Shown here piece by piece: positions 9,001 to 63,999 of a stretch of 64,000 bases of DNA (within the stretch, counting starts at the first letter, position 1; each line of letters starts with the position of its first letter). Under the pieces are notes generated by a model that made no database searches, was not told the DNA's origin, and was given only the letters and a program-made list of their open reading frames with translations. Source of the DNA: a virus. The DNA lies in IMG/VR virus record IMGVR_UViG_3300013126_000011; one strand, 5' to 3'. The position numbers were made by a program, and so were the translations under genes.

Positions 9001-10825
9001 GCTCGGAACTAGAACACAATTGACAATCACCATTTCGCAAGCATTGTCGTTAGCGGTTGATGAATTTTTGTTGGCAAACAAGTCTGAAAGAGTAAGTTTG
9101 TCGAATTATTCAATGTTAAAGACTGATACTGTTTCGTTTGGTATGCCCACTGAAGCATTTGATGGAGATACTTTATATGCCAGGGTTATACGAGGAACAG
9201 ACAGTATCGTTAGCGAAGTAAAATTATCCGAAGAACTTAAGCAACGAGTAATTGAGAAAACTCCAGATAGAATCAAGGGTGAGACTCCACTGTCGTTTCC
9301 AGAGAGATATTTTGGATTTTTATGTTCAGAAGCCTGGAAAGAAGTGATTTCAAATTCAGTAGATTTGGCAAAGCTTGAACAATATTATGCAGATAAAGTC
9401 TATCAAGGAATCTATGACGATTTATTTGGATTTGCTTTGGCTCAGGTAAAGCAAAATTTGTCTAGTGTTGCACGCCCAATTGAAGTAAAACCGTTTACAA
9501 TTCCAGGTGATGATGTTTTAGCTGCTGATTATACAAAACAGCTTGATGAATATCATGATTACCTTGAACAGCGTGATCATTATAATTTCGATGAAGATAA
9601 ATTGTCAATCAAGAATCTCGTAAAAAACGTATATGCGGAACATGCATTAGATAAGATTGCTCCTAATGCTCCAAGACCGATGGATATTGCTTTTGCTTCC
9701 GGAGTCGTATACGCCAGAATCAGAGCGATGATTATCGAAGTGCTGTTCAAAACGCTGTCTATTCAACGTGCTTTTGATGTTACCGAAGTGTCGATGCTTA
9801 AGAAAGGGTTGACAGATCGATTGCAAGAAGAGTTTGGCGATTCGACTGCTTGGTATTGTAGAGAAATTTTGCGCGCTCAATATAAAATAGCAGAAACATC
9901 TCAACCAATTCCTGACTTGATTGAGCAAATGTGGTCGACGACTATTGATGATGCCAAAGATGCGTTGTATCTCAAGAAGGCTAGCAGTTTCAACGCTGCA
10001 TTTGTACGTAATTTACCATTAGTGAGTATTGCCAGATCTGATGGTGGTACTCGTTCTAGATTGTTTGCCGCGAATACTACAGACACAAAAGCTATTGAAT
10101 TTAGTAGTATATTCAAGAAACCACAAAACAGCTTAACGAACGGGCAATTGATTCGTGAAAAATACGTTAAGCTTGTCGGCTTGGACGGTACTATTGAATG
10201 GATTGATCCGGAAAAAGTCATAACAATGTTTACGCTAGCAACTCCTACTGATAAGGTTAACAATTTCTATAGTGAAGCTTCATATGGTTTACGATTAGTT
10301 TATATACCGCCTGTATTACCAAGTGTATATGAAAATTTAAGCGAGCAAATGCCAAATGTTAATATTGTCGATTTTCAGAGCATGTTAAATGCAACGACAT
10401 TGCCAAAAACCGCTATAAATAAGAGGCTTTTTGTGGTTGCTGAGTTTTCAAAATGGTTTCCTGTTAGCGGAAATGCCACAGACGTTATGAGAAACATTTA
10501 TCCAATTTCTCTGGCACAATATGAATCTCCAATTGCAGCAGATTTGACATTGGCTCAAATGGTTGAAATCATTCAAAAACATGAAAGCAATCCGGCACAA
10601 TTGTCGTTCGAACTAGCCGATACGCCAGAATGGCAAGAGTTGTTTAAGTTCTGCTTTCCATTGGAACAAATTTTATCCGTAATTACCTTGTACGTGTATG
10701 ATAAAAATATCGAGCTTTATGGTAACTTTAAAAGAAACGCAGAAGCATGTATGAATCTATTTAAGGTGTACACCGAACAAGCCGGTAACAAAGAACAGAG
10801 CGAATACATAGAGAAAAATAAATGA
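6077..10825 (+). CDS. large putative virion (baseplate/tail-associated) protein, 1582 aa
   Basis: Long ORF inside the baseplate block with a Lys-rich coiled-coil segment; no enzyme motif recognised. Confidence 0.55.
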   Translation: MSNLDPFENVEKWTDPRDNFALASMNPDGTPHVITPTTAPQGETGVTADWYYREPWTVWEQDGKWNIVVSSDKQIPKENEELVNPPPPEDDRFGIDLEDDSTTTEYVASGSQEPATTGKPAGEAVESAKNPFIVKQEASVEKAKNSWDKSKLELSDLEQEKYKRSDGKVVNLSEEIKHLEQVRDIDVSNMESANARVPVDADIVAMYKEKIAKQNKQIEDLKKKRSDIHEKKIPKAKEKVAKKEAAYNQAIKDSNTKIKQYIEENKSPRVKALESSVRKGFQAILDEAGKYYPPDFFTDYDKFDPSNPVTRSLVYEKDYKTSESPLIKMRVLVVANKAYVDMFPDKTDAQVNEGFEKYYEHEKAARYNVSYERARLNTVVASATRILEDKQYLLDTGFSGRVNGINMNDDAALLREIPQHIESLIQEQTKNKIYADYMSKMTSLEMTGEPAYINFYQNEDHGFVTFSYVVGDRVFFMRNGLSRFANLSPIQSKKIMFLFYYLADILADENMQVLDFVAKYYSGTELRPSDDKENPGDNLDSDSEKFDDLGIRREKFNKNRRISNVIDEEENSYLRRVKDLASAYSDAISKIDIGELIKAAVSCLHQKQLELSWPNPPNLLGTWTFPSFGKFDFLDWLERLSDAVDKAIRDALDQQVVDIMKELMRLLEEGCRDSVDYGKHKANDYLVWQKAKGNSYVSNSVEEETGTPLGEIVLALNHPDEVAQAKADHQKDIYINQPVAEFKSDVNQEARNLLDDVSATLNPTNMYYMLNGKPTESTTIQIVEVADNKWVDSFGHKYLYLPKLLNTTQKSKAFCKALQKYVVQEKLYALEQEIQSEPKEETASYPPKKRYICGDKQFVSKKIELYKNKGLSQQEAEEQANKDLERNKQLLIKYSDMLKNPNRKLVTPVLMDKKNEDGSVIKGVISSTPPELMYSVEKVMEPIFKYVVEELVQDTRKYFNATMAVTNPQEIAELMLGTRTQLTITISQALSLAVDEFLLANKSERVSLSNYSMLKTDTVSFGMPTEAFDGDTLYARVIRGTDSIVSEVKLSEELKQRVIEKTPDRIKGETPLSFPERYFGFLCSEAWKEVISNSVDLAKLEQYYADKVYQGIYDDLFGFALAQVKQNLSSVARPIEVKPFTIPGDDVLAADYTKQLDEYHDYLEQRDHYNFDEDKLSIKNLVKNVYAEHALDKIAPNAPRPMDIAFASGVVYARIRAMIIEVLFKTLSIQRAFDVTEVSMLKKGLTDRLQEEFGDSTAWYCREILRAQYKIAETSQPIPDLIEQMWSTTIDDAKDALYLKKASSFNAAFVRNLPLVSIARSDGGTRSRLFAANTTDTKAIEFSSIFKKPQNSLTNGQLIREKYVKLVGLDGTIEWIDPEKVITMFTLATPTDKVNNFYSEASYGLRLVYIPPVLPSVYENLSEQMPNVNIVDFQSMLNATTLPKTAINKRLFVVAEFSKWFPVSGNATDVMRNIYPISLAQYESPIAADLTLAQMVEIIQKHESNPAQLSFELADTPEWQELFKFCFPLEQILSVITLYVYDKNIELYGNFKRNAEACMNLFKVYTEQAGNKEQSEYIEKNK

Positions 10826-11217
10826 GTTTGACACCTAGCTTTCCATTACGAGGCGATGAAACACAAGCTGGAGGATTCGCACAAGTAGAACAGTATCGAG
10901 ATCTTGTCAGACAAAATTTTCGAAATCTTTTGTTGACTGCCCCTGGTGAACGTGCAATGAATCCTGGGTTTGGAGTTGGTGTCAAGAATTTTCTGTTTGA
11001 GCAAAGCACTTTTGTAACTAAAGAAGCACTTAAGGCAAAAATTAATATGCAAGTGGCTTTATATTTAAAGTATATCAAGATTGAAAATATTGAATTTGTA
11101 GAAGAGAATGATCAATTGCTTCGTTTGCAGATTCAGTATTTTATTGAACCACTGGGAGCCAGCGATTTGATTAACGTCAACATTTCCGAAGAGGGAACAA
11201 ATACGAATGAGTTCTAA
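10822..11217 (+). CDS. baseplate wedge subunit, gp25-like
   Basis: NLLLTAPGERAMNPGFGVG is the gp25/GPW signature. Confidence 0.9.
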   Translation: MSLTPSFPLRGDETQAGGFAQVEQYRDLVRQNFRNLLLTAPGERAMNPGFGVGVKNFLFEQSTFVTKEALKAKINMQVALYLKYIKIENIEFVEENDQLLRLQIQYFIEPLGASDLINVNISEEGTNTNEF

Positions 11218-13006
11218 GAGAGTTGTTCCAATCAAATATATCAATAGAGATTATGCTTCAATTCGAGAAGCTTTGATTGAGCATGCAAAGAGATACTATC
11301 CAGATACGTACAAAGATTTTTCAGAACCCGGTCTAGGATCGTTGATAATTGATTCTGTTTCTTATGTTGGTGATGTACTTTCGTTTTATTTGGATTATCA
11401 GACTAACGAAAGCTTTCCAGATACAGCATTAGAGTACAATAATATTTTACGCCATGCAAAAAGTTATGGATATAGATTTTTGGGGAATCCATCATCTTAC
11501 GGAGCAGTTCAAGTGTTCGTGTTGGTTCCTGCACTAACGAATGCGTTAGGACCGGATTCAAGATATATGCCAGTACTTAAAAAGGGTAGCACGTTTAATT
11601 CGACTGCTGGTGCTAGTTTTATTCTCAACGAAGATGTTGATTTTTCGAGTTCTACGGATTTCGTTGCTGCTCAAGTCAACGCACAAACCGGAAAGCCAAC
11701 GTCATACGCAGTAAGATCTTCTGGACATGTTATTTCCGGAGCCTTGGGAGTCGAATATCAACAAATTGGTGCATATCAGAAATTTTTGAAGCTACAATTA
11801 ACTGCCAAAAATGTTTCTGAAATTATTTCTGTAATAGATGCCGAAGGTCATGAATATTTTGAGGTAACTCATCTTTCACAGAATACAGTTTTGCGTTCTA
11901 TTATTAACCATGACGAGAATACAAGAAATTATGCAAACAACTTGCTTCGTCCTTATATTGTGCCTCGCAGATTTGTTGTAGATAGAGATAGAACGTATAC
12001 AACATTGATGTTTGGTTCTGGCACTGATGCTACATTGTCTGAGTCATCTGTAGCAGAACCATCAAAAGTAGCGTTAAATTTATATGGAAAGCAATACGTT
12101 TCTGATACATCGTTTGATCCAACTAAGTTATTGGCGACTGACAAGTATGGCATTGTTCCAGCCAATACTGCCTTGCGAATTGTCTATCGTTATAATAACG
12201 TCGATAATGTTAATGTCTCTTCTGGAGCCTTGAGCGTAGTTGGCAAAACGGATTTTCAATTTCGAAATACCGTTGGACTAGATCGTTCTCAAATGCAAGC
12301 TGTACAAAGCAGCCTAGAAGTTAATAATGATGTTCCGATTGTTGGCGATGTTACATTACCGTCAGTTGAGGAAGTCAAAGTAAGAATGGTTGATTCTTTT
12401 GCGGCTCAGAGTCGTGCAGTTACAGAGCAAGATTACAAGGCTTTGGTATATGCAATGCCACAATCCTTTGGAGCTATTAAACGAGTTGGAGTAGCTAAGG
12501 GAAAGACAGATTCATCTACCAGAACATTAAATCTTTACGTTGTTTCGGAAGATGCTACTGGAGTATTGACGCAAACCAACGATGCAATTAAGGAAAATCT
12601 TCGTTTTTGGTTAATCAAGAATAAGATGATTAATGATGTTGTCGATATTCATGACGCTAAGATTATTAATTTGGCGATTGAATTCGAATTTATGGCTGCC
12701 TCAGATCGAGACAAATACGAAGTATACAAACGTGCAGTAGCGGCTTTGAAAGATTTTTTCTCAAATACGAGCAATGTTGGTGAAGATTTTTACATTACCG
12801 ATGTATACTCTGTTTTGCGCCAAGTAGATGATGTATTAGATGTTACGAAGGTCAAAGTGACACAAAAGACTGGTGCAAATTACTCTAGCGTACAGTTCGA
12901 TGTTGACTCGAATACGTCAGCCGATGGCAGAAGTATTCGTTGTCCAGCAAACTGTATTTTTGAAGTTAAATATGTGTGGGACGACGTGAAGGGGAATGTA
13001 ATTTAA
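11207..13006 (+). CDS. baseplate wedge subunit, gp6/baseplate J-like
   Basis: RDYASIREALI...YPDTYKDFSE, YLDYQTNESF, QSRAVTEQDYK; follows gp25. Confidence 0.88.
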   Translation: MSSKRVVPIKYINRDYASIREALIEHAKRYYPDTYKDFSEPGLGSLIIDSVSYVGDVLSFYLDYQTNESFPDTALEYNNILRHAKSYGYRFLGNPSSYGAVQVFVLVPALTNALGPDSRYMPVLKKGSTFNSTAGASFILNEDVDFSSSTDFVAAQVNAQTGKPTSYAVRSSGHVISGALGVEYQQIGAYQKFLKLQLTAKNVSEIISVIDAEGHEYFEVTHLSQNTVLRSIINHDENTRNYANNLLRPYIVPRRFVVDRDRTYTTLMFGSGTDATLSESSVAEPSKVALNLYGKQYVSDTSFDPTKLLATDKYGIVPANTALRIVYRYNNVDNVNVSSGALSVVGKTDFQFRNTVGLDRSQMQAVQSSLEVNNDVPIVGDVTLPSVEEVKVRMVDSFAAQSRAVTEQDYKALVYAMPQSFGAIKRVGVAKGKTDSSTRTLNLYVVSEDATGVLTQTNDAIKENLRFWLIKNKMINDVVDIHDAKIINLAIEFEFMAASDRDKYEVYKRAVAALKDFFSNTSNVGEDFYITDVYSVLRQVDDVLDVTKVKVTQKTGANYSSVQFDVDSNTSADGRSIRCPANCIFEVKYVWDDVKGNVI

Positions 13007-45927: not shown

Positions 45928-46149
45928 ATGAAGCTGGCAGAATTAATTCTTAAGAAGATGATTCGCGAAGCAGTTGAGGATGTCAAGAAAGATAGCGATC
46001 AAAAAGACTCTTGGCAGGCAATGAACGCGCTTGAATTATCAGAATATATGCAGGCTTTGAGAGCTAGGGTGCGATCTGAAGTGCAAGAGATTGAGCGGAT
46101 AAATCAACGTTTGCGAAAGTTAGGATATACAATTGATGGAAAACATTAA
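45928..46149 (+). CDS. small protein with N-terminal tag
   Basis: MKLAELILKKMIREAVE. Confidence 0.7.
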   Translation: MKLAELILKKMIREAVEDVKKDSDQKDSWQAMNALELSEYMQALRARVRSEVQEIERINQRLRKLGYTIDGKH

Positions 46150-47866
46150 AAGCCAGATAACAGATCAAGTAGCTGGCAAGTTTCTTCTGACAGAGTGGTT
46201 TGGTCTTTGTCCTGGCGGCGTTTGCCAAGATTTACTAACTGAAGCCGAGAAGCTTGATATCAAAAACAATAAAGCTGTTTATCTTACTGGCATTATGCAA
46301 AGAGCAGATGCCAAGAATGGTAATGGTCGAGTATATCCATATGAAACACTTAAGCGAGAGATGGACGTTTATCAGAAAATGATCAATGAACATCGAGCGT
46401 TAGGTGAGTGTGTTGATGGGGAAACAGAGTGCTTGACGAAGGATGGCTGGAAATCGATTGTTGACGTTAAAGAAAATGAAGAAATTTATACATTTAATGT
46501 CGACACGGAAGAAATGCAACTTCAGCCAGTCTTAATCAAGACTGAACGACTGCATCAAGGAAAAATGATTCATATTCATAACAAGAACAAGATTGATATG
46601 TTGCTCACTCCAGAGCATAAAATGATTTTGTGGGATCGATACGATAAGTCGTTTGAAATCACTGCTGGAGAGTTTGCTGAGAATTTCGAGACAGATTCGG
46701 GACTTCAACATTCATATTTTAGACGTGGCGGCATGAAGTGGAATGGAAAGCAAGCTGACACTGTTACAATTGGTTCTCATACGTATGATGCTGATCTTTG
46801 GGCAGCTTTTCTTGGTATTTATTTAGCAGAGGGTTTTACTTCTTATGACAAGAAAAATTGGGCAGAAGGTTGGAGAGTTTTTGTAGTTCAAACAAAAGAA
46901 GACACCAAAAATGAAATTCGAAAATTATTTAATGCATTATTCGCTAGCGAGAGAATTTATGAGACTACAAATAAAATTTCCAATAAGACTTCTTTTTCTG
47001 TTGTAAACAAAGACGTATTCGATTATGTAAGACCATTGGGGAAATCGTGGGAGAAATACATTCCAGAGGAAGTTAAAGAATGGGACGTTCGTAGACTTGA
47101 AATTTTGCTCGAATGGATGCTTAAGGGCGATGGCAGAAATCGACACAACAAAAAAGGCGAATTGATGAGGGAGTTGCACACAACTTCTTATCGATTAGCA
47201 AATGATGTGTCTGAAATCTTTCTGAAATTGGGTAGTGGTTCTGTAATGTCCGAGAGAACACAAAAAGATCGGATGATTGAGGGTAGGTTGATTGAAACCA
47301 AGAATTGTAGAAAATTGTACATTTCGTCTGAAAGTGTTACAAATCGTTCTTATTTTTATAAGAAATTTTTGAATATTAACGAAGTGGAATATGACGATAA
47401 TGTATACTGTGTAACGGTTGAGAACAAAACTTGGATTGCTCGTAAAAATGGTAGAATATTTATTACCCATAATTGTGATCACCCGACCTCAGAATTAGTC
47501 GAATTAAAAAATGCTTCTCATATGATCACAAGAACTTGGTGGAACGGAAAGGACGTTATGGGGACGCTTAAAGTGCTTTCCACGCCTTCCGGTAAAATTC
47601 TGGAAGCATTAGTGCGTGATGGCGTTCAGGTTGGAATCTCTTCCAGAGGTCTTGGAACGCTAACAGAAACCAGTGAAGGTTTGATGGTTGAAGATGATTT
47701 TGAGCTTGTTTGTTTTGATATTGTATCGGAACCATCAACTACCGGAGCTTTCATGAAGCCGACAATGTTGCATGAATCAAAAGTTCGTTTTAGCGACGTA
47801 TATACAAAAGCAGATCGAATTAATCGAATGATGATCAAAATTTTGAACGGAGTAAACAATAAATGA
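46133..47866 (+). CDS. prohead core protease (gp21-like) with LAGLIDADG intein
   Basis: NGNGRVYP, RALGE|...|CDHP, GISSRGLG, FDIVSEPST. Confidence 0.93.
   Translation: MMENIKSQITDQVAGKFLLTEWFGLCPGGVCQDLLTEAEKLDIKNNKAVYLTGIMQRADAKNGNGRVYPYETLKREMDVYQKMINEHRALGECVDGETECLTKDGWKSIVDVKENEEIYTFNVDTEEMQLQPVLIKTERLHQGKMIHIHNKNKIDMLLTPEHKMILWDRYDKSFEITAGEFAENFETDSGLQHSYFRRGGMKWNGKQADTVTIGSHTYDADLWAAFLGIYLAEGFTSYDKKNWAEGWRVFVVQTKEDTKNEIRKLFNALFASERIYETTNKISNKTSFSVVNKDVFDYVRPLGKSWEKYIPEEVKEWDVRRLEILLEWMLKGDGRNRHNKKGELMRELHTTSYRLANDVSEIFLKLGSGSVMSERTQKDRMIEGRLIETKNCRKLYISSESVTNRSYFYKKFLNINEVEYDDNVYCVTVENKTWIARKNGRIFITHNCDHPTSELVELKNASHMITRTWWNGKDVMGTLKVLSTPSGKILEALVRDGVQVGISSRGLGTLTETSEGLMVEDDFELVCFDIVSEPSTTGAFMKPTMLHESKVRFSDVYTKADRINRMMIKILNGVNNK
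46409..47473 (+). mobile_element. intein (355 aa) with LAGLIDADG homing endonuclease, in the prohead protease
   Basis: CVDGETECLT...LTPEHKM; FLGIYLAEG and LLEWMLKGDG blocks; VYCVTV...FITHN|C. Confidence 0.93.
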
Positions 47867-48171
47867 AATTAACTGAATCTCAATTAAAGCAAATTATTAG
47901 AGAGATCATCAAGGAAACTTGGAGAGATTTTCCATCTGACACTTATGCTAGCTCTGGCAACGGGCATTCTGTTAATAGAGAAGTAGATTGGCTTAAAAAT
48001 CAGCAAGATGCTAGTGCAAATGATGTTTCGTCTTGGCAAATCGTATCTTATGGAAAAAAGGTAGCCAAAGTGAATGCGTCGAACGAACGACAGGCTTTGC
48101 AAAAGTTCTTCGTGCAAAACAAGATCGATTTTAAAAATCAAAAACTATATGACGTGGTGCCAGCATCATGA
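47863..48171 (+). CDS. small protein with N-terminal tag
   Basis: MKLTESQLKQIIREIIKETWRD. Confidence 0.75.
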   Translation: MKLTESQLKQIIREIIKETWRDFPSDTYASSGNGHSVNREVDWLKNQQDASANDVSSWQIVSYGKKVAKVNASNERQALQKFFVQNKIDFKNQKLYDVVPAS

Positions 48172-48719
48172 AATTAACTGAAGCAGTATTAAAGAAAATC
48201 ATCCTTAAAGAGATTGCCGATCTTGATCTGCCTTTTGTAAATGAAGATGAGACAGTTCCGAATCCACAAATTGAACAGTGCATTGAAACATTGACTGATA
48301 CTTTGATCGATACATATGTTTCTCAGCATTCTGATTATCCAGGTGAATATGAGCATGAATCATTATCTGACAAGATTGAGCAGATTGTTCGCTCGCATGT
48401 TCAAGAAGCAATTCGACAAGTACAAGACTTTGCAAAGCATCATGGACCAAAAGAGTTTGCATTGGAGGAAGGATTTTTGGGATTTGGAAAGAAAGATCCG
48501 GCAGATAAGCTGCTGAAAGACCCTGGATTTAGAGCCGCTTGTCACAGTTTTAGACAGTCGCCTCCGGGTGAATTGGGAATGATTAGTCGAAAGATGCGAA
48601 TTGTAGCGGCACAAGTTTTATCTGATCAGGATATTGCTTTTACATCTGATGGCGAAGACGGCTTGGACATATTGGTGACTAAAGCCTATCAGCGATATGT
48701 TCGAGAAAATTCAATCTAA
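48168..48719 (+). CDS. protein with N-terminal tag and internal LxE sites
   Basis: MKLTEAVLKKIILKEI...FVNE...ALEEGFLG. Confidence 0.7.
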   Translation: MKLTEAVLKKIILKEIADLDLPFVNEDETVPNPQIEQCIETLTDTLIDTYVSQHSDYPGEYEHESLSDKIEQIVRSHVQEAIRQVQDFAKHHGPKEFALEEGFLGFGKKDPADKLLKDPGFRAACHSFRQSPPGELGMISRKMRIVAAQVLSDQDIAFTSDGEDGLDILVTKAYQRYVRENSI

Positions 48720-49637: not shown

Positions 49638-49907
49638 ATGCAGAACTTGATTGTTGAGTATGCGACAGGAAGCGATGAAAAAGAGAATGTTGTGTTGCAA
49701 AATAAAATGAAAATTGTGCAAGAAGAGTATCGCTTTGTGCATGTGTGTGAAGTCCCTCTTGATAATGTTGCCCTCTTCAGAGAAAAGCATGGTATTTTAG
49801 ATGAGGCTCCCTGTACTCTTTTCTGGAAAGAGGGACAGGTTATTCTTTCGATTATTGGTGTACCGACAATGAAATATTTGCTGGATGAAGTAGAAAAGCA
49901 CTATTAA
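49638..49907 (+). CDS. degenerate thioredoxin-like protein
   Basis: HGI...PCTLFWKEGQ...IIG resembles the thioredoxin C-terminal half; no CxxC. Confidence 0.45.
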   Translation: MQNLIVEYATGSDEKENVVLQNKMKIVQEEYRFVHVCEVPLDNVALFREKHGILDEAPCTLFWKEGQVILSIIGVPTMKYLLDEVEKHY

Positions 49908-49910
49908 AAT

Positions 49911-51161
49911 ATGTCAAATTTTCTCAAAGGTGGCAAAGGCGATAAGCTTTCCAAAAAGGACGTTGATCCTGTTCAATTAAAGATGGGAATCAAGGTCGAA
50001 ATGGAGCATGCGTCCGACCCTAGAAAAGCTGCTGAAATTGCGCTCGATCACCTTTCGGAAGATCCAAAGTACTATAGCAAGTTAAAGGCTGCTGGATTGG
50101 CTGATGAACTTGATGAATCTAGTCAAGCTTCACAAGATTTAGAAAAGATTTCCATTCAATATAAACCAAATTTTTCTCCTTTTAAAACGTTAAAGTTTGT
50201 ACGTTGTGGTGGAAAAAATTTCAAGAAAAATGCTTATTATAGAAGTTCGAAAAATACCGGTCATCAACCGCCAGAAATGCATGGTTTTTATGCTTTTCCG
50301 GAAAATTATGTTGAACGATTTTTGGTTGTTAATCCTGGCGATTGTGGAGTATTTAATTATTCTGGTTTGTTGTGGACATATTTGACTGTTGCGTTACCAA
50401 AGGATGCAAAAATTTATGATAGAAAAAATGGTTGGGTATTAGTCAGTACTGATACATATGAGAAAATTCTAACAAAGTACAATGCATTAAAAAATGTTGA
50501 TGCGGCGAAAAATTATACGGATTACGGAAAGAAAACAAAGACAGATCCTTCTAGGAGAAGTGGGCATAGAATATTCAGTAAGGACAATTACGAAGTATTC
50601 ATTCCCGAGAAGAACTTTCATCGCAGATCTGAATTAAGCGAAGAGAACAATAGTCACGTCACTTTTATAGAAGCGACCAAACAAGATCTTCCAGGGCTTA
50701 TGAAAGTTGATCACGAAGTTTTTGAGTTTCCGTATTCTCAAAACACGTGGAACAAATTTTTTATCGATACAAAAAAACACGTCGTCATGAAGATGGTTGA
50801 TGGAGACAATATCTGTGGTTTTATGATTATGGACAAATATCCAGAGCATCTTCTCTTCAATAAGATGGGAATCGATAAGGCTCATCGAAGGCAAGGTCTT
50901 GGTGAACGAGCAATGTACTATGTTGATGATTATGCTCGAAAGAGTGGATATGACACAGTTCTTGGGCATGTACGACACAACAATATTGCTTCGTTGGCAA
51001 TGCACAAAAAGACTGGTTCAGACTGTCAAGAAACAGACGGAACATATCAAAACGGCGATAAAGTGATTCGGTGTGTGCGAAATCTAAAGAAAAAGAATAA
51101 TCAGCTTTCAGAAATGATTCTTGAAGCGGTTAATGTAGCGTTAAACAAATTTTCTAGGTAG
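49911..51161 (+). CDS. multidomain protein: DUF5661-like + unknown domain + GNAT (RimI-like) acetyltransferase
   Basis: QLKMGIKVEMEH...EIALDHLSEDPKYYSKL; GNAT motif A MGIDKAHRRQGLG and VRHNNIASLAMHKKTG; domains separated by LDE and LSEE. Confidence 0.75.
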   Translation: MSNFLKGGKGDKLSKKDVDPVQLKMGIKVEMEHASDPRKAAEIALDHLSEDPKYYSKLKAAGLADELDESSQASQDLEKISIQYKPNFSPFKTLKFVRCGGKNFKKNAYYRSSKNTGHQPPEMHGFYAFPENYVERFLVVNPGDCGVFNYSGLLWTYLTVALPKDAKIYDRKNGWVLVSTDTYEKILTKYNALKNVDAAKNYTDYGKKTKTDPSRRSGHRIFSKDNYEVFIPEKNFHRRSELSEENNSHVTFIEATKQDLPGLMKVDHEVFEFPYSQNTWNKFFIDTKKHVVMKMVDGDNICGFMIMDKYPEHLLFNKMGIDKAHRRQGLGERAMYYVDDYARKSGYDTVLGHVRHNNIASLAMHKKTGSDCQETDGTYQNGDKVIRCVRNLKKKNNQLSEMILEAVNVALNKFSR

Positions 51162-51168
51162 GTGATAA

Positions 51169-51396
51169 ATGCGTCCAGTTAATGTGCATGTAGAACGTCG
51201 ACCAGATGAACCCATTGAGACTATGCTCAAGCGCTTTACGAGATTGGTTAAGAAAAACGAGATCTTAGATGAAGTAAGAGAGCGTATGTTTTATGTGAAG
51301 CCTTCAAAGCTTAAGCATCAACATGACTGTCATATTAAGCATGTATTCAGAATGCAGAAGCTTCAGAAGCAAGAGGAAGATAAGGCTCGCAAGTAA
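51169..51396 (+). CDS. rpsU: phage-encoded ribosomal protein bS21
   Basis: DEPIETMLKRFTRLVKKNEILDEVRERMFYVKPS matches the bS21 pattern (LRRFKR...E.R.R.FYEKPS). Confidence 0.85.
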   Translation: MRPVNVHVERRPDEPIETMLKRFTRLVKKNEILDEVRERMFYVKPSKLKHQHDCHIKHVFRMQKLQKQEEDKARK

Positions 51397-51451: not shown

Positions 51452-53095
51452 ATGTCTGATTTGTATAAGAGCGCAATTGCTGATGCCAAGCTTCTAAGAG
51501 AAGCTGCAATCAAGAGCGTCGAATCGGTTATTTTAGAAAAATATAGTGGAGATATTAAGCAAGCTGTTGATGAAGTGCTATCTGGTAATTCAGATGAGCT
51601 TTATGAAGCTAATGAAACAGAAGATGAAAATGTCGACAAGAAGAGCGACAAGAATCTTTTTGGACCCAATGGTGATGGTTCTCCAACAAATGATTTGCCA
51701 AATCCAGACAATCTTGGTTCCCTGACAGATACAGCCGACGTTGGAACAGATCTTTCGGCAAACTCGGATGATCCTGATTCGCAAGATCCAATGACTGCTG
51801 ATGTTATGAATTCTTCTGGAGATGCAGAAGCAAAACAAGATGCAACAGCAGAAGATGATAGCTTTCCTGATATGCCCGATCAAGCAATGGATGGTGAATC
51901 TGTTAGTGGAGCCGTTCAGACAAACGGAGAAATCGAGATCGATCTTTCCGAGCTAGAAGCAATGGCAAATTCGAAGCCAAATAAAGTACAAGATGTAAGT
52001 CAAGATACACAATCTCATGAATCGATCCTTCCAGATATGGGCGGTAGTGAGAATTCAATGGAAGAGCCGCTGAAGGAAGCAATTGATTCTGATGAAGAAG
52101 CTCCTAAAGAAGATCATAATGGTCGAAAGCTTATCATTGATGATGAAGTATTAGAACAACTTGCAGAAGCACTAATGAACGAAACAGATGATACTGGTGC
52201 TAGTGAAGCAGGTGCTTTAATTGAGCGTTATAATACCAATAATGAATATGATGATTCTGATGAAAGAGAAGAACGTCGTAGAGCCAAAGAAGAGTATGAT
52301 GAAGGTTGGGCAGATCGTGAACATGATCGACACAAAGAGGGTGACGATGAGTACGACGATCTTGACGAGTCCGTTGAAGATGAACTAAGTGCAGATAAAC
52401 CATCGAATACACAGCTTGTCGAAGACTATAAAGAGAATCTATTAGAAGATATTGACTTTGATTTTGAGGAAGTGCCTTCCGGAAATATCAATGGAAATTT
52501 TGGTGGTGTTCCAGAACCAGAAAAGCGATTTGAAAAAGATCGTATGGCTGCTGCCAAGAATCTAAAAGATAAGAAAGACGAAGAAACGAAAAGAGCGGCT
52601 TTAATGGAAGCCGTTTCAAAAGAAGTTGACAAGAAGGTTAAGAAGCTTTCAGTACGTTTGAATGCATTGGAGCAAAAGAATCAAGATTTAGTCAACGAAA
52701 ATCAGAAGCTAGCAACTGATCTGAAAAATACTAGCACAAAGCTATTGGAAACCATTACGAACAATAGCAAGCTTCACTATGCAAATCGTATTTTAAGAGA
52801 TGGCTCCTTGAATGAGCAACAGCGCAATAAGCTTGTAGAGTCTTTAAAGAAAGCGAATAGTGCAGAAGAAGCAAAGTCGATTTTTGAAACAGCAAAGAGT
52901 CTTGTTGAGTCTGTCGGAAGCACCCGAGGAAGCGTCATGACTGGAAAAGCACCGTCACTCAATGAGGTTTTAGCTAATCGAAATCGAACAAAGACCTTTA
53001 ATAGTTCGGGGCAAAATGATCGAGAAGAGGAAGGCAATCCGATTTCTTCATCAATTAGAGAGAGTTGGAAGAAAATTGCCGGAATTAAGAACTAA
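51452..53095 (+). CDS. prohead scaffold/core protein (gp22-like)
   Basis: Directly upstream of the major capsid gene; AIADAKLLREAA N-terminus, long acidic region with many LxE sites, coiled coil, NSKLHYANRI, ends WKKIAGIKN. Confidence 0.8.
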   Translation: MSDLYKSAIADAKLLREAAIKSVESVILEKYSGDIKQAVDEVLSGNSDELYEANETEDENVDKKSDKNLFGPNGDGSPTNDLPNPDNLGSLTDTADVGTDLSANSDDPDSQDPMTADVMNSSGDAEAKQDATAEDDSFPDMPDQAMDGESVSGAVQTNGEIEIDLSELEAMANSKPNKVQDVSQDTQSHESILPDMGGSENSMEEPLKEAIDSDEEAPKEDHNGRKLIIDDEVLEQLAEALMNETDDTGASEAGALIERYNTNNEYDDSDEREERRRAKEEYDEGWADREHDRHKEGDDEYDDLDESVEDELSADKPSNTQLVEDYKENLLEDIDFDFEEVPSGNINGNFGGVPEPEKRFEKDRMAAAKNLKDKKDEETKRAALMEAVSKEVDKKVKKLSVRLNALEQKNQDLVNENQKLATDLKNTSTKLLETITNNSKLHYANRILRDGSLNEQQRNKLVESLKKANSAEEAKSIFETAKSLVESVGSTRGSVMTGKAPSLNEVLANRNRTKTFNSSGQNDREEEGNPISSSIRESWKKIAGIKN

Positions 53096-53127: not shown

Positions 53128-54837
53128 ATGAGTTCAATTCTACAGAAACTAACAGAAGGCGTGACTCACCGTTCTGTCCGTAAAGAAGGTGCTGCACTTC
53201 TAAAGAAGTGGGAACGTACTGGTCTTTTGGAAGGTCTAAAGTCAGAGCGTGAGCGAGAGAATATGTCACGTCTACTTGAGAACCAAGCCAAGGAACTGCT
53301 TCGTGAAGCTTCGACAATGCAGTCTGGTGAAGTTGAGGGCTTTGCGGCTGTCGCCTTCCCAATCGTTCGTCGTATTTTCGGTAATCTTATTGCTCAAGAT
53401 CTAGTATCCGTACAGCCAATGAGTCTACCAAACGGTTTGATTTTCTTCATGGACTTCACTCACACTCATGAGAAGCTGAATGCCGGTGCTGCCGCTGCAA
53501 CTTCTGTCTACGGTGGTGGTGTGACTGCCCGTGATATCACAACCGGTGTTGATCTGTCAGGCAAGAATGCCGAGCGTGGTTTCTATAACTTCGCCAACGG
53601 TTATTCAAGCCCAACAGGTTCACAGTCACTAACCGATCAGAGAACAACCGATCCTGATAATCTAGGTGACAATGAGTACGTATTCCTATGGACCGGTTCA
53701 ACAGTAGGTACTGCCCTAACTGATTCCGATAAGGCTGCTGTGCGTTTTGACGTTGACGTAACCCAGGATGATGTTGGCAAGTACATTCCTATCGTTCTGC
53801 AACTATCAGAAGCCACGTGGAACAAGGTAAACCTTGATAACCTAGTAGCTTGTGATCTAGAGTCTGGTACAGAAGCGAATGGCGTGTTTAGCGTTCGACG
53901 CCTAACCGATATTTACAATCGTACCAATCGTCAGATTTATACGATTGCTCGTGTAACTGGTACTGGTTCTATTGATACTGGCAGCTTCGTTTATCCCTAC
54001 AAGGATCAGTTTACGACTGCTGATGCGCTTGGTGCAATGAAGGGAACTTCACAATGGCCATTCGAATCAACATTCTCTGATACTGATCAGACTCTTCCTG
54101 AGATCGACATCAAGGTCAACTCGATTGACATTCGTGCTGTGACCAAGAAGCTCAAGGCTAAGTGGACACCAGAATTGGGTCAGGATATCGATGCTTATCA
54201 CAACACCGATATCGAAGTTGAGCTAACCGGCGTTCTCTCTGAGTACGTTGCGCTAGAAGTCAACAACGAAATTCTAGAAGATCTAGTAGTTGGTGCTACC
54301 GCTGGTACACTATACTGGAGCCGTATCCCTGGTCAGTTTGTGAATCGTGAGACTGGTGCTGTAACTGGTGTTGGCGACTTCACTGGTAACGTCAGCATGT
54401 GGTATGAGACACTAGTTGAGACAATCAACGATGTTTCTGCTCGTATTCACCGTAAGACTCTTCGTGGTGGTGCAAACTTCCTCGTGACCTCTCCCGAGAT
54501 TGCCAACGTTCTTGAGATGACTGCTGGCTTCCGAGCTAACATCACTCATGACGACGAGAAGGGCACTGTTTCCGTAATGTCAACCGGTAGTCTGAACAAG
54601 AAGTGGGACGTGTGGGTTAGCCCTTACTTCCCTCGTAACTTGATTCTCATTGGTCGTAAGGGTTCTTCGTTCCTTGAGAGTGGTTATGTGTATGCACCTT
54701 ATGTGCCTCTGCAAGTTACACCAACCATCTTCGGAGTGGAAGATTTTACACCTCGTAAAATGGTTATGACTCGATATGGAAAGAAAATGGTACGTTCGGA
54801 TATGTACGGATTATGCGTGGTCAGAGATCTTGTGTAA
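53128..54837 (+). CDS. major capsid protein (gp23-like)
   Basis: KWERTGLLEG, LLENQ, PIVRR, VSVQPMSLPNGLIF, KLKAKWTPELGQD, YAPYVPL, MTRYG. Confidence 0.96.
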   Translation: MSSILQKLTEGVTHRSVRKEGAALLKKWERTGLLEGLKSERERENMSRLLENQAKELLREASTMQSGEVEGFAAVAFPIVRRIFGNLIAQDLVSVQPMSLPNGLIFFMDFTHTHEKLNAGAAAATSVYGGGVTARDITTGVDLSGKNAERGFYNFANGYSSPTGSQSLTDQRTTDPDNLGDNEYVFLWTGSTVGTALTDSDKAAVRFDVDVTQDDVGKYIPIVLQLSEATWNKVNLDNLVACDLESGTEANGVFSVRRLTDIYNRTNRQIYTIARVTGTGSIDTGSFVYPYKDQFTTADALGAMKGTSQWPFESTFSDTDQTLPEIDIKVNSIDIRAVTKKLKAKWTPELGQDIDAYHNTDIEVELTGVLSEYVALEVNNEILEDLVVGATAGTLYWSRIPGQFVNRETGAVTGVGDFTGNVSMWYETLVETINDVSARIHRKTLRGGANFLVTSPEIANVLEMTAGFRANITHDDEKGTVSVMSTGSLNKKWDVWVSPYFPRNLILIGRKGSSFLESGYVYAPYVPLQVTPTIFGVEDFTPRKMVMTRYGKKMVRSDMYGLCVVRDLV

Positions 54838-54862
54838 TCTATCAATCTAATTGATGCAGAAG

Positions 54863-54892
54863 AGCCGTCGAAAGACGGCTTTTTTGTTTTTT
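54863..54892 (+). terminator. Rho-independent terminator after the capsid gene
   Basis: AGCCGTC-GAAA-GACGGCT hairpin followed by a T-tract. Confidence 0.9.
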
Positions 54893-55953: not shown

Positions 55954-57405
55954 TTGAAAATGGAAAAATGTAAAGCATGTAACAAGGTGCTTGATTCTGT
56001 TCCGGAACTGGTCAGACACATTATGACAGATCATAAAATGACAACCGAAGCGTATACTGTGAAATATCTTTATGACGGAAAGCGTCCGGTTTGTCCTGAA
56101 TGCGGTAAGACGACGCGCTATGTTCAATTTCAATTTCGAACATATTGCAAAGAACACGCAAATTTAGCTAGAGCCAAATCCTGTAAAGAAGTTGGAAAGC
56201 TTCCGTCATGGAACAAAGGTCAGACTAAAGAAACAAATGAAATATTGCGTAAGCAAGCAGAATCTTTTAAAGGTGAAGGCAATCATTTTTTTGGCAAACA
56301 TCATTCTGAAGAAACAATCGAAAAGCTTCGTAATCAAAAGCTTCTTACTGAAGAAGAATACTATGCGCGCACTTTAACCAGATGTAGTTTACCGAATGAA
56401 GAGAAAAAGAAAGAATTTGTGCTGCTGACGCCCTACTCTGAATACCTTTCCAGACAACATCAATGTTTGCAATTGCAGTGTACAAAGTGCGGTACTGTCG
56501 ATAAAAAGACTTTGCAAGCGTTTGAACGTCAATCAAAGTGCAAAGTATGTTATCCGATTCAGAAAAATTCAAGAGAAGAGCAAGAAGTAAAAGATTTCGT
56601 AAGATCTGTTTGCGCTTGTGAATTGATTGAAAATTCTAAGCAAGTTATACCTCCAGTTGAATTAGATCTCTATGTACCAGAAAAGAAGCTAGCTATCGAA
56701 TATAATGGTCTATACTGGCACACAGAGGAAAGTAAATCAAAATCCTATCACAAAGACAAAACCGTCGCCTGTGCTGCCAAAGGAATCAGATTGTTTCATA
56801 TTTTTTCTGATGAGTGGCGGGATAAACAGCCAATTTTAAAATCAATGATTGCTTATCGCCTGGGGGTGCTAACGAATCGTGTATCTGCTCGTAACTGTGA
56901 AATCAGACAATTGACGACTGCTGAAGCGAAGCAGTTTTTTGATTTAACGCATATTTCTGGCTGGACTCATTCAAGAATTGTTTTTGGTCTTATCGATGAT
57001 GATAATTCTGTTGTGGCTGCTCTTGGTCTTCGAGTACCACAACAAAAAGCAAAGTATCCAAATGCTTTAGAGATCTCCAGATTTTCAAACAAGCTTGATA
57101 CCATTGTTAATGGTTCTTTTGCTAAATTACTTGAAAAAGCTAAAGCATACGCAGTCGAAAACGATTTTACCAGTTTAATCACTTATGCAGATCTTCGGTT
57201 TGGAGATGGCTCAGTATATGTTCGTAACGGTTTTGAAGAATTGCAAGAGTCTGTGCTAGATTATTGGTATACTGATGGAGCAGAAAGATATCCAAGGTTT
57301 TCGTTTAGAGCGACAAAAGAGAAATCAGAAAAAGTGCTTGCTCTTGAGGCAAATGTCAGTAAAATCTACGGTTGTGGTTCTAAAAGATATCGATTGAAGC
57401 TTTGA
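55954..57405 (+). CDS. Hef-like homing endonuclease (Zn ribbons, NUMOD3, DUF559/Vsr-like nuclease, C-terminal GNAT-like domain)
   Basis: CPECG, GKHHSEET, ELDLYVPEKKLAIEYNGLYWH, HIFSDEW, EISRF, TYADLRFGDG, KIYGCG. Confidence 0.8.
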   Translation: MKMEKCKACNKVLDSVPELVRHIMTDHKMTTEAYTVKYLYDGKRPVCPECGKTTRYVQFQFRTYCKEHANLARAKSCKEVGKLPSWNKGQTKETNEILRKQAESFKGEGNHFFGKHHSEETIEKLRNQKLLTEEEYYARTLTRCSLPNEEKKKEFVLLTPYSEYLSRQHQCLQLQCTKCGTVDKKTLQAFERQSKCKVCYPIQKNSREEQEVKDFVRSVCACELIENSKQVIPPVELDLYVPEKKLAIEYNGLYWHTEESKSKSYHKDKTVACAAKGIRLFHIFSDEWRDKQPILKSMIAYRLGVLTNRVSARNCEIRQLTTAEAKQFFDLTHISGWTHSRIVFGLIDDDNSVVAALGLRVPQQKAKYPNALEISRFSNKLDTIVNGSFAKLLEKAKAYAVENDFTSLITYADLRFGDGSVYVRNGFEELQESVLDYWYTDGAERYPRFSFRATKEKSEKVLALEANVSKIYGCGSKRYRLKL

Positions 57406-62288: not shown

Positions 62289-62773
62289 GCGACAATAAAT
62301 TCACACCATTAACAACTGCTCCACCTCCTTTGTTCGTTGGTAAGAAAGAACGTGATTTTGTTGCTCATATTACACTTGAAACAGAAGAAAGAATCATTGG
62401 ACAATCGATCTTGTATTATCCAATCGACATTATGACGACAAACTATCATTCAGTATACGGTGAAGCGATAAAGAAGAACTTTTTACCTCCAATTCAAGTG
62501 TACGTGGCTATTGAATGGGAAGGCTACAAGACGGATACCGAAAAGATGGGAGTTGATCGATATGCTAGCATGAAGGTCCACTTTTTCAAACGAAGATTGA
62601 CAGAAGAAAAGGATCTTGAGGTGCAAACAGGCGATTACGTTTTGTACGGAGAACAATATTACGAAATTGTCGAATTAAATGAGCCAAGAGAACTGTTTGG
62701 TCAAGTTTTTGCCGACAAAGTAGAGATTGAAGCAAAATGCATCAGAGCTAGAGAGGGATTGTTTAAGGGATGA
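62282..62773 (+). CDS. neck/head-closure protein (gp14-like)
   Basis: PLFVGKKERDF, ILYYPID, HSVYGEAIKKNFLPP, GDYVLYGEQYYEI. Confidence 0.75.
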   Translation: MVSDNKFTPLTTAPPPLFVGKKERDFVAHITLETEERIIGQSILYYPIDIMTTNYHSVYGEAIKKNFLPPIQVYVAIEWEGYKTDTEKMGVDRYASMKVHFFKRRLTEEKDLEVQTGDYVLYGEQYYEIVELNEPRELFGQVFADKVEIEAKCIRAREGLFKG

Positions 62774-63999
62774 AGTTATATGAAGCTGAAAGAGAATATT
62801 GGGGCAACAAAGCTGCTGGAGTCTTATGCGTAAGCGCTCAATCTGGTAGATTTTTGGTAATGCTTCGTTCTGATGAAGTAAATGAACCTAATACTTGGGG
62901 CGTTCTATCTGGCAAGGTCGACGGCAAAGAATCATTTGAACAAGCAGCTACCAGAGAAGCAAGAGAAGAGACAGGATACACAGGCAAAGTGTCATTGACT
63001 CCAATGTATAAGTTTAAAGACAATGACTTTACGTTTCAGAACTTTTTGGGCATTGTTGACCAAGAGTTTGAACCAAAATTGAATTGGGAATCAGAGGATT
63101 CTCGTTGGCTTACATTACAACAACTAGAAAAACTACCAAGAAAGCACTTTGGATTGACTGCTCTTCTCAAAGACCAAAAGTCATATGATTTGCTCAAGAA
63201 ATATGAGAACAAGACCGCTTCAGAGCTTCAAAAAGGCTGGAAAAGTTATATCGGAGAGGCAAAGCAAACAATTATTCCAGATAGAATAACATTCGAACAA
63301 GCAGAATCAATTTTCAAGTACTTTCATCTTAGCTGGAAAAAATTAGGAGAAGATACGTTTACTTTTAGTGCGAGAATACCAAATGGTCCTGCACCTTGGG
63401 AAGATGATTTTACCAAGCGTGTTTCTTTGGGACCAACAATCAATGACTGCTTGGTTGCTGGTGCTGATGGTCCTTATGTTTACGCAGGAGATCTCAAATT
63501 TACTCCAAAAGATGATATTCCAATTGTTGATGTTGAAGAAACTTGGGACGATTGCCCATATAAGAAGTTTGCAAAGAAAGCTTATCGTGGAATAATGAGT
63601 TCAGCTGAAGCCTTTCAGTGGTTTTTAAAAGAGTTACGCAAAAACGGTGAGACTTTGTACTATTATTCGAGAAACGCTAAAGGATGGAAAAAGGTGCCAG
63701 AAAACGATATTGAGAAACAAAATAGTATCGTATATTATAGTTTGCCAATATCGCTTGAACAGAATGGTCATAATTATTGGGTATTTGGCAACGATCCATC
63801 TATTTCTTTGCCTGAAAAATACCAAAAGGCTTGGTATTCATGTGTACCAGATGCAAAGATTACTCACGAGAAGTGGAGTCCAAAAGACGTTAAATTAATG
63901 TATGTTGGAGCAATGGATAGTCGAAACAAGGATATTATTCTCACCGATCATATGAAGCAGTTCTTGATTAAAGTTGGAGTTGTTTTTAATGAAGAATAA
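62770..63999 (+). CDS. Nudix hydrolase fused to a putative ART-fold domain
   Basis: Nudix box GKVDGKESFEQAATREAREETG; linker LQKGWKSYIGE; then YFHLS...EDDFTKRVSLGP...VPDAKITHEKW. Confidence 0.75.
   Translation: MKLYEAEREYWGNKAAGVLCVSAQSGRFLVMLRSDEVNEPNTWGVLSGKVDGKESFEQAATREAREETGYTGKVSLTPMYKFKDNDFTFQNFLGIVDQEFEPKLNWESEDSRWLTLQQLEKLPRKHFGLTALLKDQKSYDLLKKYENKTASELQKGWKSYIGEAKQTIIPDRITFEQAESIFKYFHLSWKKLGEDTFTFSARIPNGPAPWEDDFTKRVSLGPTINDCLVAGADGPYVYAGDLKFTPKDDIPIVDVEETWDDCPYKKFAKKAYRGIMSSAEAFQWFLKELRKNGETLYYYSRNAKGWKKVPENDIEKQNSIVYYSLPISLEQNGHNYWVFGNDPSISLPEKYQKAWYSCVPDAKITHEKWSPKDVKLMYVGAMDSRNKDIILTDHMKQFLIKVGVVFNEE

Follow-up and report, generated by a model that had tools for sequence, protein, structure and literature searches.

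The gene considered here occupies positions 49911–51161 of the plus strand of a 64,000-nucleotide (nt) stretch of viral DNA (IMG/VR record IMGVR_UViG_3300013126_000011; the whole of this stretch is called the window) and is one uninterrupted open reading frame (ORF) of 416 amino acids (aa), in which a DUF5661 module, a middle domain from an undescribed family and a RimI-like GNAT acetyltransferase are joined in a combination that is new. The reading that we favor, with a probability of roughly 0.45, is that this protein (hereafter the target) is a multi-enzyme effector of the polyvalent or internal-cargo type which, by analogy with phage T4, would probably be packaged in the capsid and cut at (L/I)-x-E motifs (LxE for short) located between its modules. 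The parts of the target are the following, all on the plus strand:

49911–51161, plus strand: the whole ORF, three modules and a tail (ORF call, Pfam, motif positions).
49911–50108, plus strand: DUF5661 module, aa 1–66, beginning at the conserved GG-x-GD and ending in the conserved acidic G-L-x-x-E-L (PF18905, 46.9 bits; alignment A4; 120 partners).
50109–50189, plus strand: linker 1, aa 67–93, with LDE at aa 67–69 (nt 50109–50117), lying between family-defined borders.
50190–50615, plus strand: middle domain, aa 94–235, from a virus-only family without a Pfam model; candidate ADP-ribosyltransferase (ART)-like fold (119 homologues; alignments A1/A2; AF2 model; VIA-align and Atlas leads).
50616–50675, plus strand: linker 2, aa 236–255, with LSE at aa 242–244 (inside nt 50631–50645; family alignments, motif positions).
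50676–51086, plus strand: RimI-like GNAT domain, aa 256–392, with an R-x-x-G-x-G acetyl-CoA loop and His at both RimI catalytic positions (Pfam, RimI alignment).
51087–51158, plus strand: C-terminal tail, aa 393–416, a leader-like amphipathic stretch with LSE (399–401) and ILE (403–405) (motif and pattern scans).

The borders of the modules were taken from family alignments, independently of the LxE motifs. DUF5661 is recognized by Pfam at aa 18–60 (cut-off 27 bits), the family alignment extending its core and conserved acidic end from residue 1 to about aa 66; the middle family starts with an F-V-R-x-G-G strand (aa 96) and its stand-alone members end a few residues past E-V-F-I (aa 228–231); the alignment with RimI begins at aa 256, and the GNAT domain itself (Acetyltransf_1, PF00583) is recognized at aa 274–369 with 45.3 bits against a cut-off of 20.7. 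With these borders, LDE and the first LSE fall in the linkers, and the second LSE and ILE in the tail beyond the GNAT domain. The layout of three modules, the location of the motifs between folded modules and the tag-like C-terminus, all of which had been claimed in an earlier note on this DNA, are thus borne out, the word "polyprotein" used there being an interpretation rather than an observation. No MuF, portal-anchor or processing metallopeptidase domain is detected by Pfam or PHROGs within the target protein, no paralogue of the middle domain or of DUF5661 is present elsewhere in the window, and the gene is overlapped by no RNA family (Rfam), notable repeat or convincing opposite-strand gene. 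Its GC content (0.37) is similar to that of the neighboring genes. Prediction of the whole protein by AF2 without an alignment gave an uninformative model (pLDDT 33), and the GNAT by itself also folds poorly.

The target lies in a T4-type head module having the order portal protein (Portal_T4), S77 protease, small proteins, target, bS21, scaffold-like protein and capsid protein. The genes of this module to which the argument refers are:

46133–47866, plus strand: prohead protease of the gp21 type (Peptidase_S77), its reading frame split by an intein that has a LAGLIDADG domain; presumed processing enzyme (Pfam, PHROGs).
49638–49907, plus strand: 89-aa ORF in frame with the target, from which it is separated by a TAA stop and one codon; absent from relatives.
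51169–51396, plus strand: phage bS21, beginning 7 nt downstream of the target, in line with the earlier note's "directly upstream of bS21" (PF01165, 44.3 bits; TIGR00030, 36.7 bits).
51452–53095, plus strand: acidic scaffold-like core protein, with 18 LxE motifs against 8 expected (LxE count, gene order of relatives).
53128–54837, plus strand: gp23-type major capsid protein, the propeptide of which has four conserved LxE motifs (Pfam, propeptide alignment).

Because no promoter- or terminator-like site is found on the plus strand from ~46011 to a strong terminator at 54856–54887, the target probably shares a transcript with the genes for the protease, the scaffold and the capsid protein. No enrichment of the T4 late-promoter motif TATAAATA is seen. 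In 80 related contigs there recurs the gene order portal, 43581, 44642, protease, 48697, 49266, bS21, scaffold, capsid protein (numbers designate genes by their position in the window), and at least 14 of these contigs have bS21 between the core proteins and the scaffold (e.g., L107:8567, L094:8523 and L125:4218–4421), a count that is a lower bound since short S21-like ORFs (such as L104:3242–3445) fall below the tblastn threshold. Neither the target gene or any of its domains nor the 89-aa ORF is found in any of the 80 contigs. As judged from gene order, since the relatives keep bS21 and none of them carries the target, the latter is a lineage-specific insertion in a variable slot beside a resident bS21. 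The 89-aa ORF is an insertion in common with the target; it starts with a leader-like LxE sequence, M-Q-N-L-I-V-E, and has no Pfam match.

The distribution of the LxE motifs is what first argues for cleavage. The target contains seven of them against 2.6 expected from shuffling (P ~0.008); the four in the linkers and tail are to be compared with 1.2 expected (P = 0.014) and the three inside the domains with 1.5, a non-significant difference. The latter three (aa 48–50, 231–233 and 330–332) are parts of conserved family motifs and are uninformative as to cleavage. Among the window proteins, an LxE excess at P ≤0.01 is found in the head-core proteins (43581, the protease, 48697 and the scaffold-like protein), in the target and in 28415; the excess is weaker in the capsid protein (P ~0.04) and absent from the large tail proteins. 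In T4 the protease gp21, whose cuts fall after L/I-x-E, breaks down the core proteins, and Alt is trimmed of both an N- and a C-terminal propeptide (PMC9026906). In the capsid proteins of the window and of the 80 related contigs (50–57% identity), LxE occurs at four columns of the propeptide that are invariant or nearly so (80–81 of 81 sequences), and the last of these sites, L-[RK]-E followed by A or S and located ~23 residues before a conserved V-R-R motif, corresponds to the maturation site of T4 gp23. Because the capsid propeptide keeps these four invariant sites, the S77 protease of the window likely has a T4-type specificity for LxE. In this phage group aa 1–60 of the capsid protein (53128–53310) offer a clean in-silico read-out of the specificity of the protease.

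A second line of evidence comes from the occurrence of the same modules elsewhere. A leader with (L/I)-x-E, similar to the capsid-targeting sequence of T4, is present in 16 of the 48 middle-family members that have an N-terminal extension of at least 9 aa, against 7.5 expected (P = 2e-4), which suggests that some phages may address the middle-family protein to the capsid. In the contig L058 (of which L057 is a near-identical copy), separate neighboring enzyme genes at 6707–12113 carry similar M-I/K-K-L-K...LxE leaders, the leader-bearing set comprising an NT5C/HAD-like protein, a middle-domain protein, a DUF2608 protein (PF11019), a DUF5661 protein, a CCA-adding enzyme and an ART-PolyVal-like protein. 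The same array also holds a leaderless lysozyme and a leaderless nucleoside deoxyribosyltransferase/TIR-like protein, with a 2H phosphoesterase nearby. As to DUF5661, it is internal in 90 of 120 proteins and also occurs alone, never in company with the other parts of the target; among the modules joined to it are 2H/LigT-type domains, a phosphatase, and modules of ImmA-like and nucleotidyltransferase type. An LxE motif lies within 16 residues after DUF5661 in 38% of the 120 proteins compared with 20% of background windows. In the cultured Vibrio phage VPs20, a head-module protein made of DUF2213 and DUF5661 is encoded by the gene that directly precedes those for the cement and major capsid proteins. 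The two motifs of the DUF5661 module of the target, G-I-K-V-E-M-E-H and D-H-L-x-E-x-P-x-Y-Y, are invariant in alignment A4. A profile search for a DUF5661 relative in PDB matched P-type ATPases only, at chance level.

The third line of evidence is the tail of the target, which fits the pattern [KQRN]-L-[STA]-E-x-x-[LI]-[KEQ], a pattern derived post hoc; in the 20,603 residues of the window proteins its only other occurrences are at position 2 of the N-terminal leaders of 45928, 47863 and 48168. These three small ORFs (47863–48171, 48168–48719 and 45928) have near-identical M-K-L-[TA]-E leaders; since 47863 and 48168 are not in the relatives, they would mark a second variable cargo slot straight after the protease.

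These data would fit the following scheme. Three mobile modules would have been joined and inserted at a variable position within a conserved head operon of T4-like type, to be expressed late: DUF5661, presumably a small two-helix adaptor recurrent in phage multi-domain and head-assembly proteins; a member of the undescribed virus-only family, probably a minimal ART-like enzyme; and a divergent acetyltransferase of the RimI clade. The protein would be made alongside the head proteins and might enter the prohead core by means of its leader-like tail or of DUF5661, after which the gp21-type protease would cut after the Glu of the LxE sites of both linkers and of the tail; the released enzymes would then leave the capsid together with the DNA and modify proteins of the host at an early stage of the following infection, in the manner of T4 Alt.

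Two known systems come close to this scheme. In the polyvalent proteins of phages and conjugative elements (Iyer, Burroughs, Anand, de Souza, Aravind 2017) an ART beside a RimI-like GNAT is recurrent and processing into units has been postulated (PMC5512222). Like these, the target has at least two unrelated effector domains and is encoded among late/structural phage genes; unlike them, it is small, lacks a MuF or portal anchor and a self-processing metallopeptidase, and would depend for its processing on the LxE sites of the head protease. As far as we know, DUF5661 is not among the domains named in PMC5512222. With the T4 Alt/IPI-III system the window shares homologues of gp20, gp21, gp22 and gp23 together with the L/I-x-E motif. 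T4 also offers the precedent for enzyme cargo, Alt being an ART trimmed at both ends by gp21, and its hypervariable cargo genes have only the leader in common (PMC3012670, PMC9026906). Unlike Alt and the internal proteins, the target has no N-terminal leader, only a leader-like C-terminal tail, and its gene is inside the head operon; for the C-terminal element the C-terminal propeptide of Alt is a precedent, and a possible address that is not N-terminal would be new. We know of no internal cuts between folded enzyme modules in T4 cargo.

Two findings weigh against packaging and cleavage. The N-terminus of the target coincides with the start of DUF5661 and, unlike that of the neighbors 45928, 47863 and 48168, has no capsid-targeting leader; moreover, the presence of bS21 in the same operon indicates that non-structural late genes occur there. 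Both fit a different account, which we regard as somewhat less probable, namely that the target is a late cytoplasmic enzyme that stays intact, its modules acting together (e.g., modifying host or phage proteins during head assembly) and its LxE motifs being incidental to acidic linkers. Such an account is helped by the conservation in the operon of bS21, which is no known virion protein, by an LxE enrichment that is modest (P ~0.01) and by the fact that ~85% of the middle-family members have no leader, but leaves aside that the motifs cluster exactly at the module borders and in the tail, that this tail is leader-like and that in other phages these modules occur as cargo bearing a leader or within head proteins. 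The proposal of virion cargo, made in the earlier note, therefore keeps its support from the layout, the LxE motifs between modules, the tail and the position in a head operon beside an S77 protease; it is weakened by the missing N-terminal leader and loses its connection with bS21.

The middle domain had been left unassigned in the earlier note. Its family can now be defined: HMMER, run in full against 1.84 billion representatives (clusters at 50% identity), yielded 119 homologues with a best E = 4e-10, nearly all of them stand-alone proteins of 130–260 aa spanning the whole domain; 35 loci are in IMG/VR, and in the 185,579 cellular genomes scanned a single contig of a metagenome-assembled genome contains a member. 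By sequence, this is an undescribed, virus-only family without a Pfam model; indeed, Pfam gave no family match on 113 members, the copy used lacking the AcrIF11 ART family (PF26151), and a PDB sequence-profile search with the family gave no relative. Near-invariant are the R and G of strand 1 (F-V-R-x-G-G), H-x-P-P and G-x-Y-A-F around strand 2, two Trp, one His and D-x-x-E-V-F-I in the last strand, and the target keeps these family-invariant residues; for comparison, the NAD+ pocket of ARTs is characterized by R/H in strand 1, S/Y in strand 2 and E/D where the catalytic strand begins. A few homologues carry a Pol-beta nucleotidyltransferase as a C-terminal fusion; one of these fusions is encoded in the 250-kb contig L054, where the genes around it are of tail-sheath, baseplate, Nudix, NT5C and cytidylyltransferase-like type.

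Concerning its fold, AF2 with alignment A2 produced a confident model of the domain (pLDDT 84.8, pTM 0.80). The Foldseek comparison that the earlier note had proposed as a check did not settle the assignment, no match with E <0.2 being obtained against PDB and BFVD. On the other hand, 15 of 22 VIA-align matches, all weak, are ART-fold proteins, TreTu and RES recur in a further weak structure comparison, and the nearest named ESM-Atlas clusters, both for the middle domain and for its homologue P0123, are AcrIF11 ART and ART-PolyVal (scores 0.88–0.91). In size (about 140–160 aa) and layout, with a basic residue or His and a Tyr in the N-terminal strands and a variable helical middle, the domain resembles AcrIF11 and ART-PolyVal; furthermore, its last strand, close to the C-terminus, holds a conserved acidic pair, to be compared with the H/Y and D-E pairs of AcrIF11 (bioRxiv 10.1101/2024.08.26.609590). 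It differs from the ART of polyvalent proteins in that it is not PF18760 by sequence and displays an R/H...Y...D-x-x-E pattern instead of H-Y-D. PF18760 (ART-PolyVal) is not among the Pfam matches of the window's middle domain, nor among the 25 listed out of 69 families matched by the 113 members at E ≤1. What speaks against an ART-like enzyme is the hhalign comparison of A2 with two ART-PolyVal sequences, i.e., the domain in the virion RNA polymerase (vRNAP) of Roseovarius podovirus RPP1 and the ART-PolyVal-like protein of L058, which gave a probability of 0.1%. For the RPP1 domain, a word-indexed search found no homologues and an IMG/VR scan returned the domain itself only. In short, sequence profiles do not point to ART, while weak structure matches and language-model neighbors both do; to an ART-like enzyme, predicted on the latter, we give slightly better than even chances, and if it is one it is probably NAD+-dependent. 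The domain formerly left unassigned thus has a family, and a fold that is tentatively ART-like.

The third module possesses the acetyl-CoA loop R-R-Q-G-L-G at aa 326–331 and is a GNAT by superfamily criteria. Its best matches are RimI proteins (by phmmer, PDB 2CNM with E = 4e-7 over ~113 residues that include the acetyl-CoA loop), RimI being the N-acetyltransferase of the bS18 alanine (PDB 2CNM, 5ISV). Its scores of 41.3 bits for TIGR01575 and 25.7 for NF007025 are far below the equivalog cut-offs of 86.4 and 173, and in the phmmer alignment to 2CNM a His (His353 and His365 of the target) stands opposite both Glu103 and Tyr115 of Salmonella RimI, which we take to be its catalytic residues. Unlike RimI, this GNAT is of phage origin and fused to two other modules. 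The designation as a RimI-like GNAT, found in the earlier note, is therefore correct as regards the superfamily and the best match, and does not extend to RimI proper. A homologue search confined to the GNAT region returned none in the 228–728 aa range.

From the adjacency of this acetyltransferase to bS21 the earlier note had derived a modification of the host ribosome or of defence proteins, and one can imagine that the acetyltransferase, alone or together with the middle enzyme, modifies the 30S subunit or the phage bS21 itself and forms a functional unit with the bS21 gene. The resemblance to the bS18-modifying RimI, the location of the gene just ahead of bS21 in a common operon and the case of T4 ModB, an ART whose target is ribosomal protein S1, all speak in this direction. 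Nonetheless, we regard it as improbable: at least 14 relatives have bS21 in the head module and none has the target; the RimI score falls far short of the equivalog level and neither catalytic residue is kept. Moreover, the GNATs of polyvalent proteins belong to a RimI-like, generic protein-modifying clade and are typically found beside an ART (PMC5512222), so that a resemblance to RimI is to be expected and does not single out the ribosome. Since the adjacency results from a lineage-specific insertion, it is no evidence of a functional link, and both this link and a ribosome-directed function, tempting as they were, have been dropped as unsupported. Conservation of bS21 in the head module does recall the phage bS21 genes found in structural clusters, a likeness that concerns the neighbor gene and not the target. 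The bS21 genes of the relatives were reached through their capsid-protein loci; with the exact sequence patterns used, no close bS21 relatives were found in IMG/VR.

Highly improbable, too, is the most far-reaching combination of these elements, namely a capsid-delivered, protease-released pair of enzymes, consisting of a new minimal ART-like family and a His/His variant of RimI, that would retarget host translation at the start of infection together with the phage bS21, DUF5661 or the C-terminal leader serving as a non-N-terminal capsid address. A decaying or inert fusion, i.e., a recent moron in which GNAT catalysis is lost and the middle domain is a binding module, could be imagined in view of the His replacing both RimI catalytic residues, the uniqueness of the fusion and the lack of a sequence-level tie of the middle domain to any enzyme family, but is very unlikely given the intact frame, the preservation of the invariant residues of the middle domain and of the acetyl-CoA loop, the capacity of His to act as a general acid or base and a GC content close to that of the neighbors.

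If packaging and cleavage are the fate of the target, the T4 principle of a shared address tag combined with a protease site would hold not only for small internal proteins of one domain but also for strings of enzymes, which in uncultured T4-like phages would be separated within the capsid by cuts at the LxE sites between their domains. The middle family, by virtue of its 119 clusters at 50% identity and of a confident predicted fold that has no clear solved relative, is a good candidate for a new host-modifying enzyme.

Some additional features of the window and of its relatives deserve mention. In L100, L104, L116–L120 and L125–L128, the slot between bS21 and scaffold, ~4.5–8 kb upstream of the capsid gene, is occupied by large variable proteins of 500–1100 aa with Gly/Ser-rich N-termini and 0–5 LxE motifs, as compared with 12–21 in the ~430-aa scaffolds; they may be head decoration or fibre proteins selected against protease sites. 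The 483-aa protein encoded at 55954–57405 combines an N-terminus of zinc-finger-like character with a NUMOD3 motif and a conserved C-domain of 330 aa that falls in no known family; its homologues are encoded convergently beside middle-domain genes in 13 fetched loci (including L042, L043, L046, L048, L054 and L064) that represent few independent lineages, and one homologue is located ~0.2 kb downstream of the capsid gene in the relative L143. Finally, 62770–63999 encodes a Nudix domain followed by a C-terminal region without a Pfam match, a region that an earlier note had labeled ART-like, and a stand-alone Nudix protein 42% identical to that of the window is encoded at L054:3622–4116, near the middle-domain fusion of that contig.
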